Source of the DNA: a virus
Lineage: Duplodnaviria > Heunggongvirae > Uroviricota > Caudoviricetes
IMG/VR virus record: IMGVR_UViG_2563366976_000003
Location: 1 to 10,361 of that record
Length of the DNA: 10,361 nt
Direction: 5' to 3' (one strand)
The translations under genes were made by a program, and so were the position numbers. Under the pieces are notes generated by a model. That model was not told the origin of the DNA. It did no database searches and saw only the letters and a list, made by a program, of their open reading frames with translations. Shown one piece after another: positions 5,280-5,356 of the stretch; position 1 is the first letter of the stretch; every line of letters starts with the position of its first letter.

Positions 5280-5356
5280 TGGACCGCCTTCGGGGACCCG
5301 AACTCCGCGCAACCAGCTTCGAAGGCTGGCGCTCTTTCCTGATGAGCTAATGGCGG
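5280..5356 (-). tRNA. argN: tRNA-Arg-like (anticodon UCG) with non-canonical features; possibly argN-like or a pseudo-tRNA
   Basis: Hand fold: D-stem GCTC/GAGC, perfect anticodon stem CCAGC/GCTGG with loop CTTCGAA, CCA encoded. It has an A-A mismatch in the acceptor stem, an A-C mismatch in the T-stem, and T-loop TTCGGGT (G where A58 is expected). Confidence 0.55.

Follow-up and report, generated by a model that had tools for sequence, protein, structure and literature searches.

A probably decaying tRNA-Arg(UCG) gene of the argN type in the three-gene tRNA unit of an Escherichia coli lambdoid prophage

The window, by which we mean the whole stretch of 10,361 nucleotides that was analysed, is a lambdoid prophage without stx; a match at 100% identity is present in E. 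coli 23CRST038, and ML35, VR50 and BEN2908 match it along about 99% of its length. The minus strand carries, in order, DUF968, RusA, the antiterminator Q, a Ser/Thr kinase, a PP2C phosphatase, a DNA methyltransferase remnant and three tRNA genes, past which come two STnc100 elements, a SASA-family esterase, a holin and a lysozyme. According to the RefSeq annotation, the protein kinase and the phosphatase have overlapping reading frames (5926-7505, minus strand) and are located between Q and the tRNA unit. The methyltransferase remnant (5489-5815, minus strand) is annotated as a pseudogene with a truncated N terminus and is situated immediately upstream of the tRNA promoter region. Both copies of the STnc100 sRNA are full-length (4437-4646 and 4924-5114, minus strand; 165.4 and 136.3 bits) and are found directly downstream of the tRNA trio, at the site of stx2AB in Stx phages. 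STnc100 also follows the trio in 9 of 10 relatives scanned and in phage Nil3, and in one relative (L042) it is adjoined by the AgvB (anti-GcvB) sRNA. Two mechanically predicted ORFs of 81 and 93 aa that extend across the tRNA genes (5140-5385, plus strand; 5031-5312, minus strand) are without annotation in RefSeq and are almost certainly spurious.

The three tRNA genes and their flanking signals (Table 1) look like a self-contained transcription unit that runs from a putative promoter to a terminator. The candidate promoter, pT, sits 10 nt upstream of ileZ, and its hexamers and their spacing are identical to those of the site annotated as "pT; putative tRNA promoter" in phage SC370 (AF548457). 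A consensus sigma-70 scan of positions 4900-6000 called no promoter and missed pT because its -35 hexamer matches the consensus at 3/6 positions only; the assignment of pT therefore derives solely from homology to an annotated putative site. At the other end of the unit, a stem-loop (5175..5158) is followed by a T run, and the SC370 counterpart of this site, just past argO, is annotated as a "possible rho-independent terminator". The first tRNA is labelled tRNA-Ile2 in RefSeq and Met by ARAGORN. Among relatives, the spacer between ileZ and the middle tRNA is 1, 7 or 9 nt long, and that between the middle tRNA and argO is highly variable (pi = 0.22).

Table 1. Features of the tRNA unit in window coordinates, listed from the putative promoter to the terminator-like hairpin.
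Feature	Position	Strand	Basis or remark
Putative tRNA promoter "pT" (TTGCAG, 17 nt, TATTAT)	5449..5477	-	Homology to SC370 annotation
ileZ-type tRNA, anticodon CAU	5364..5439	-	ARAGORN; RF00005 72.5 bits
Spacer ileZ/middle tRNA, 7 nt	5357..5363	-	Read from sequence
Middle tRNA, argN-type tRNA-Arg(UCG) allele	5280..5356	-	ARAGORN, RF00005 and position-by-position parse
Spacer middle tRNA/argO, 13 nt	5267..5279	-	Read from sequence
argO-type tRNA-Arg(UCU)	5190..5266	-	ARAGORN; RF00005 70.1 bits
Intrinsic-terminator-like hairpin and T run	5150..5175	-	GGCTCGCTTTTGCGGGCT then TTTTTTTAAA; closes tRNA unit

The tRNA scanners used were ARAGORN and Infernal with the Rfam model RF00005 (gathering score 29). 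For the middle gene, which is 77 nt long, ARAGORN calls a tRNA-Arg with anticodon tcg (5356..5280, minus strand), and RF00005 matches 5356..5283 in the same register with the full-length model (43.4 bits, E = 1e-6), which places it above the gathering threshold as a cloverleaf. The match is far beyond chance, and the identification as a tRNA stands, as both scanners call it and no fold in another register scores better. A sequence-only reading of this DNA had folded the gene by hand and had described perfect D and anticodon stems, an A-A mismatch in the acceptor stem, an A-C mismatch in the T stem, G at position 58 and the anticodon UCG. ARAGORN agrees on the anticodon, and RF00005 together with our manual parse reproduces every other detail in the same register.

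Specifically, the acceptor stem (CCGCCAU/AAGGCGG) contains A6•A67 at window positions 5351 and 5289, and the T stem (CGGAG/CCCCG) contains A52•C62 at 5304 and 5294, so that full standard pairing of the four stems (7, 4, 5 and 5 pairs) fails; RF00005 flags non-standard pairs in these same two stems. The D stem (GCUC/GAGC) and the anticodon stem (CCAGC/GCUGG) are paired throughout. The anticodon loop CUUCGAA presents U34, C35 and G36 at 5322..5320, the T loop UUCGGGU has G58 (5298) in place of A58, and the first pair, C1-G72, is accompanied by discriminator U73 (5283) and an encoded CCA (5282..5280). Among the conserved positions, U8, A14, G18, G19, A21, U33, G53, U54, U55, C56, R57 and C61 are kept, and A58 alone is changed.

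We take the identity set of E. coli arginyl-tRNA synthetase to be A20, C35 and G36 or U36, with A73 or G73 as a weaker element. A20, C35 and G36 are all present in the window allele, the first within a 9-nt D loop whose sequence (AUCAGGAAA) sets A at position 20. The purine discriminator is absent, U73 standing in its place; both A20 and U73 are invariant across all 34 aligned middle-gene alleles, and U73 is a trait of the family and a weak identity element, not a lesion. Because the anticodon arm (including U33), the identity nucleotides and the encoded CCA are intact, as is the D arm, this allele could still be charged by ArgRS and could still decode.

The same reading had suspected a link to argN of Stx phages, and this suspicion proved correct, with both synteny and identity at 70 of 77 positions to argN of phage 933W. 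Judged by position and sequence, the middle tRNA is homologous to argN, the central member of the ileZ-argN-argO trio that 933W and other Stx phages carry. A 331-nt query with the trio retrieved 289 phage records with identities of 80-95%, the majority of them Stx2 converting phages; several of these are annotated ileZ, argN and argO, and in Stx2 phages the trio is located between Q and stx2A. The 933W genome paper (Plunkett et al. 1999) reportedly named the trio, and the gene family, its position and a proposed rare-codon role are said to have been known since then. The window allele itself is already annotated as tRNA-Arg in RefSeq, and PGAP gives it no pseudogene flag.

When the trio is aligned with eight reference loci, ileZ is identical in all and argO nearly so, and the middle gene is different in almost every one. 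The alleles of 933W and WGPS8 have A6-U67, G52-C62 and A58, yielding a clean cloverleaf with no stem mismatch. Since these two and many other alleles carry U67, G52 and A58, the A67, A52 and G58 of the window are, on this comparison, derived lesions rather than family traits. An intermediate allele that carries only G58 (v7) exists as well. The RF00005 scores form a corresponding series, with clean alleles at 59.0, 58.4, 56.0, 55.7 and 54.8 bits (the last being that of 933W), the G58-only allele at 54.0 bits and the window allele about 11 bits below the clean ones. Additional changes on the window allele lower the score to 42.9 bits (C32U), 37.5 bits (C32U and G50A) and 33.8 bits (G10U), and one heavily mutated middle allele scores below 29 bits, under the RF00005 threshold. 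Across the allele series the neighbouring tRNAs hold at 72.5 and about 70 bits. Further changes in alleles of the window type include G10U, G50A and the conversion of CCA to UCA. No tRNA is called in the allele of an Stx2c phage, in which a 12-nt deletion has removed the anticodon loop, or in that of mEp460, in which the anticodon arm and T loop are scrambled.

Single changes in the stems of Arg-UCG alleles produce a G•U wobble at about 9 positions and a broken pair at about 9, and no compensated stem change was found within the UCG alleles. A covariation test on 34 alleles, which has low power, found three double-sided changes, all from a single Lys-type sequence, and for this reason the test speaks neither for nor against selection on UCG-allele stems. 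An alternative hairpin, UUCGG/CCGAA, can be drawn in the window allele with an apparent covariation of positions 58 and 63 (A-U in 933W, G-C in the window); we reject it because three of the four possible haplotypes exist, as expected if two mutations had occurred independently, each on its own branch. Cloverleaf energies and ensemble probabilities calculated with ViennaRNA for every allele and for single revertants gave no ranking. The thermodynamics of unmodified sequences cannot rank these tRNAs, because even ileZ, argO and the clean 933W allele receive very low cloverleaf probabilities.

To sample the middle slot regardless of its own state, a scan of IMG/VR was anchored on the 3′ end of ileZ. 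The survey sets comprise 93 loci that also have argO, 92 with a middle-gene body and 57 with a full-length 77-nt allele. Although ileZ is identical in 88 of the 93 loci, the ileZ-argO interval is represented by 50 distinct sequences. About a third of the 92 middle-gene bodies (about 34) form a clean cloverleaf, and 17 carry the triple lesion of the window, in 8 alleles, some with further changes. A scrambled form of 80-81 nt, for which ARAGORN gives no call, occupies 23 loci, the 12-nt deletion of the anticodon loop is found in four and a UUU anticodon in three; the remaining loci have other single or multiple defects of the middle gene. The scrambled form, which no scanner calls, is the commonest single middle-slot form in the IMG/VR sample and is also seen at L008 425-504 and L136; in it the acceptor stem and D arm of argN are retained and the anticodon arm and T loop are replaced (…GACGACACGATAACAGGGTTGTTGGTGCGGGGGCGGGTCCCCG…).

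Per-site diversity over the 93 loci, with indel alleles included, is 0.003 for ileZ, 0.049 for argO, 0.19 for the ileZ-argO interval and 0.20-0.22 for flanking non-coding DNA, so that the slot taken as a whole comes close to the rate of non-coding sequence. In the 57 full-length loci the values are 0.003 for ileZ, 0.013 for argO, 0.072 for the middle gene and 0.22-0.25 for the spacers, and segregating sites number 31/77 as against 19/113 (Fisher p = 4e-4). The diversity of the full-length middle gene thus exceeds that of argO about 5-fold and that of ileZ about 25-fold, and amounts to about one third of that of the spacers. Constraint on the middle gene is much weaker than on its neighbours; for the family as a whole it is relaxed rather than absent, and some purifying selection acts on it, since full-length alleles are roughly threefold less diverse than the spacers; such selection may persist in the lineage of the window. 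Within the window-type lineage there are 6 segregating sites in the middle gene and 2 in each of the neighbours, although these counts are small. With regard to argO, for which IMG/VR loci and an E. albertii locus (L133) were considered, the T stem of six loci has undergone a true compensatory exchange (C50-G64 to G50-C64), which points to purifying selection, and in four loci unrelated sequence truncates the gene just past the anticodon.

A search of 5,426 complete E. coli genomes located ileZ at 7,527 places in 3,057 genomes and argO at 6,223 places in 2,369 genomes, whereas the middle gene was recognised at only 1,597 places, a count in which strongly diverged alleles are under-represented because the search needs an exact word of 28 nt. 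The exact window allele is present in 246 complete E. coli records, the type strain among them. Recurring allele classes of the middle gene were also found in a one-genome-per-species collection, in which the trio occurs outside Escherichia/Shigella on two MAG contigs only and gives no clue to a chromosomal ancestor of argN. These two contigs, one labelled uncultured Collinsella sp. (L137) and the other from a Proteobacteria MAG (L132), carry the E. coli prophage trio nearly unchanged, with a window-type middle allele in L137, which suggests that they are mis-binned Escherichia prophage DNA.

Even scrambled and deleted alleles keep the acceptor stem and D arm, and the 3′ end of the gene, GGCGGTCCA, is nearly always retained. 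This pattern would be expected if the middle gene, though it no longer decodes, served as a tRNA-shaped spacer that directs RNase P and 3′ processing on the ileZ-argO precursor and thereby lets both neighbours mature, and the very short flanking spacers of 7 and 13 nt would suit such a role. However, the same ends would equally be kept through recent common descent. Moreover, the ileZ-argO interval varies from 80 to 101 nt and measures 1 nt in one locus, and in the Lys-type clusters other tRNAs substitute for argO. We consider a processing role very improbable.

Middle genes with the anticodon UUU ("Lys") are found at L009 517-593 and at L131 and L134 (E. coli and Shigella flexneri). Their anticodon stem has been re-paired through a change of C27-G43 to U-A and another of G30-C40 to A-U, both of them double; they have C33 instead of the universal U33 and an A51•C63 mismatch, and score 40.4 bits. 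At these loci tRNA-Thr and tRNA-Gly stand where argO would be. A G3•U70 wobble in the acceptor stem is shared by two further variants, the UCG allele of phage Nil2 (L005 416-492) and the UUU allele of phage PPompW (L007 416-491). Alanyl-tRNA synthetase recognises its substrates chiefly by G3•U70, and if the Nil2 or PPompW RNA were expressed and charged, the insertion of alanine at arginine codons could result.

Arg and Lys tRNAs are known targets of nucleases. It is conceivable that diversifying selection acts on the middle slot as a source of replacement or decoy tRNAs against tRNA-cutting toxins such as colicin D (tRNA-Arg) or PrrC/PARIS-type nucleases (tRNA-Lys), which would account for its rapid change and its anticodon switches. 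The slot would then be a fast-turnover cassette that swaps anticodons (UCG, UCU, UUU and "Pro"), with the window allele as a nuclease-resistant or decoy form. The switch from UCG to UUU with a fully re-paired stem, the switch to UCU and the "Pro" call in the middle slot of TL-2011c (PMC7366253) point in this direction. Nevertheless, changes among UCG alleles are scattered over the D loop, T arm and acceptor stem rather than focused on the anticodon loop that such nucleases cut, and many of them merely break stems or remove the anticodon. The Lys-type allele, in turn, has C33 for U33 and scores only about 40 bits, and no defence context is tied to the tRNA within the window. We regard both the cassette and its counter-defence function as very unlikely. 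Decoy and processing roles alike are possible in principle, and we found nothing specific that speaks for either.

The demand for the codons read by the trio is uneven. In the 18 annotated prophage genes (3,285 codons), AUA, AGA, AGG and CGA occur at 13.1, 11.9, 10.0 and 6.7 per 1000, respectively, and the kinase gene (255 codons) contains 8 AUA, 6 AGA, 4 AGG and 2 CGA. In codon tables of E. coli K-12 the same codons stand at about 4, 2, 1 and 3.5 per 1000. Relative to this usage, AUA, AGA and AGG are several times more frequent in the prophage genes and CGA about twice as frequent. Inosine on tRNA-Arg(ACG) extends its decoding to A-ending codons (PMC13185646), and the benefit of a dedicated UCG reader should be small because the abundant host tRNA-Arg(ICG) already reads CGA. 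The rare-codon rationale put forward by the sequence-only reading is hence persuasive for ileZ and argO, and weak for the CGA reader.

The main rival to decay is that the window allele encodes a working, if unusual, tRNA-Arg(UCG) that reads CGA by Watson-Crick pairing and CGG by wobble for the prophage genes, its odd positions being tolerated or adaptive. Both scanners call it a tRNA, and A20, C35, G36, the anticodon arm and the CCA are intact. It shares an apparently complete promoter-to-terminator unit with two well-kept tRNAs, the allele is widespread, full-length alleles are partly constrained relative to spacers, and CGA is used in the prophage at roughly twice its K-12 average. However, the derived lesions that depress its score all fall in the acceptor/T-arm half and the elbow, including the near-universal A58. 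Descendant alleles gain more stem-breaking changes, many related phages manage without the middle gene, and CGA demand is the lowest of the four rare codons. In addition, an AQRNA-seq table for strain EDL933 (PMC13185646 Data S5) has rows for three Arg-UCU and four Ile2-CAU species, as would be seen if the prophage copies of argO and ileZ are expressed, but none for Arg-UCG. The missing row is weak evidence, because the paper does not describe its reference set and is silent on whether this included Arg-UCG; EDL933 also carries middle-gene alleles other than that of the window. On balance, a working CGA reader seems to us a serious but distinctly less probable explanation.

The reading that we favour, with a probability of roughly 60%, is that the window carries a weakened, dispensable form of argN that is turning into a pseudogene. 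The sequence-only reading had left the choice between a functional atypical phage tRNA and a decaying pseudo-tRNA undecided. The second is the better supported, because the lesions are derived, with scores that fall stepwise, descendant alleles have been hit further, and the gene has been lost repeatedly from its slot in sister phages; "atypical phage tRNA" is the less apt description, as this is a typical phage tRNA gene that has been damaged. On this reading, decay would proceed as follows. An intact argN would provide a Watson-Crick reader for CGA, a codon that the host reads only via the inosine wobble of tRNA-Arg(ICG), and this would be a minor benefit beside the readers of AUA and AGA/AGG. 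Selection on the middle gene would consequently be relaxed, and the gene would be eroding independently in many phage lineages. The window allele would have arisen from a clean ancestor through A58G first, followed by G52A and U67A. A trio transcript that includes the middle tRNA is probably still made.

The T54-A58 reverse-Hoogsteen pair builds the elbow of tRNA, and RNase P, the CCA-adding enzyme and EF-Tu recognise the stack of the acceptor stem and T arm. Because the lesions affect this stack and the T54-A58 elbow, folding, maturation and delivery to the ribosome would be expected to be poor, leaving little or no decoding. The tRNA call, the lesions and their derived state, and the patterns of rate and loss are observed; low or absent function of the window allele and the cause of the relaxed selection are inferred. 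Counting against decay are the positive scanner calls, the tRNA-Arg label given by PGAP, the commonness of the allele and the lower diversity of full-length alleles relative to spacers. Some tRNAs can also tolerate a single A•C or A•A mismatch.

Stepwise decay of the middle gene is what would be expected of a dispensable accessory gene. It has a practical consequence in that PGAP labels the window allele as a plain tRNA-Arg in hundreds of E. coli genomes, and owing to this label the tRNA counts and codon-adaptation estimates of prophage-rich strains may include a weak or dead CGA reader. It also indicates that selection is unequal inside a single three-gene tRNA unit, in which the readers of AUA and AGA/AGG hardly vary and that of CGA is repeatedly eroding. 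This inequality bears on the share that each phage tRNA has in the expression of late genes and of Shiga toxin.

Several published observations concern the same cluster. The set of tRNAs between q and stx differs by Stx subtype; TL-2011c has Met-Pro-Arg, and Stx2e phages have no more than Met and Arg (PMC7366253). A "tRNA-pseudo" is reported in the tRNA cluster of most stx2i phages (PMC13641118). In the q-stx2 region of a clade-8 O157 strain, one of four distinguishing SNPs falls in "the first tRNA-Arg" (PMC2858043). In the literature that we searched, we found no description of stepwise decay of the middle gene beside frozen neighbours, and searches by the gene names argN, ileZ and argO were empty.

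The closest known system is argN of 933W. The two genes share their place between ileZ (CAU) and argO (UCU), downstream of Q, as well as the length of 77 nt, the UCG anticodon, C1-G72, U73, A20 and the encoded CCA. They differ at positions 17, 20a, 44, 52, 58, 63 and 67, among which the window allele has A67, A52 and G58 where 933W has U67, G52 and A58, and RF00005 separates them at 43.4 and 54.8 bits. The surroundings differ as well: unlike 933W, the prophage of the window lacks stx, having two STnc100 elements at the stx position and the kinase/phosphatase pair between Q and the tRNAs. The damaged middle-slot alleles of the Stx2c phage (12-nt deletion), mEp460 (scrambled) and the stx2i phages ("tRNA-pseudo", PMC13641118) resemble the window allele in their slot, in the ends formed by the acceptor stem and D arm, and in their intact neighbours. 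These alleles are no longer called as tRNAs, whereas the window allele still is and would represent an earlier stage. A more general parallel is provided by phage tRNAs that compensate for differences in codon usage between phage and host, as attributed to Bailly-Bechet et al. 2007 in the account given by PMC7946995. The trio matches codons over-used by the prophage, strongly for AUA, AGA and AGG and weakly for CGA. Codon compensation is a general rationale rather than a family to which the middle gene could be assigned, and it accounts better for the retention of ileZ and argO than for the fate of the gene between them.
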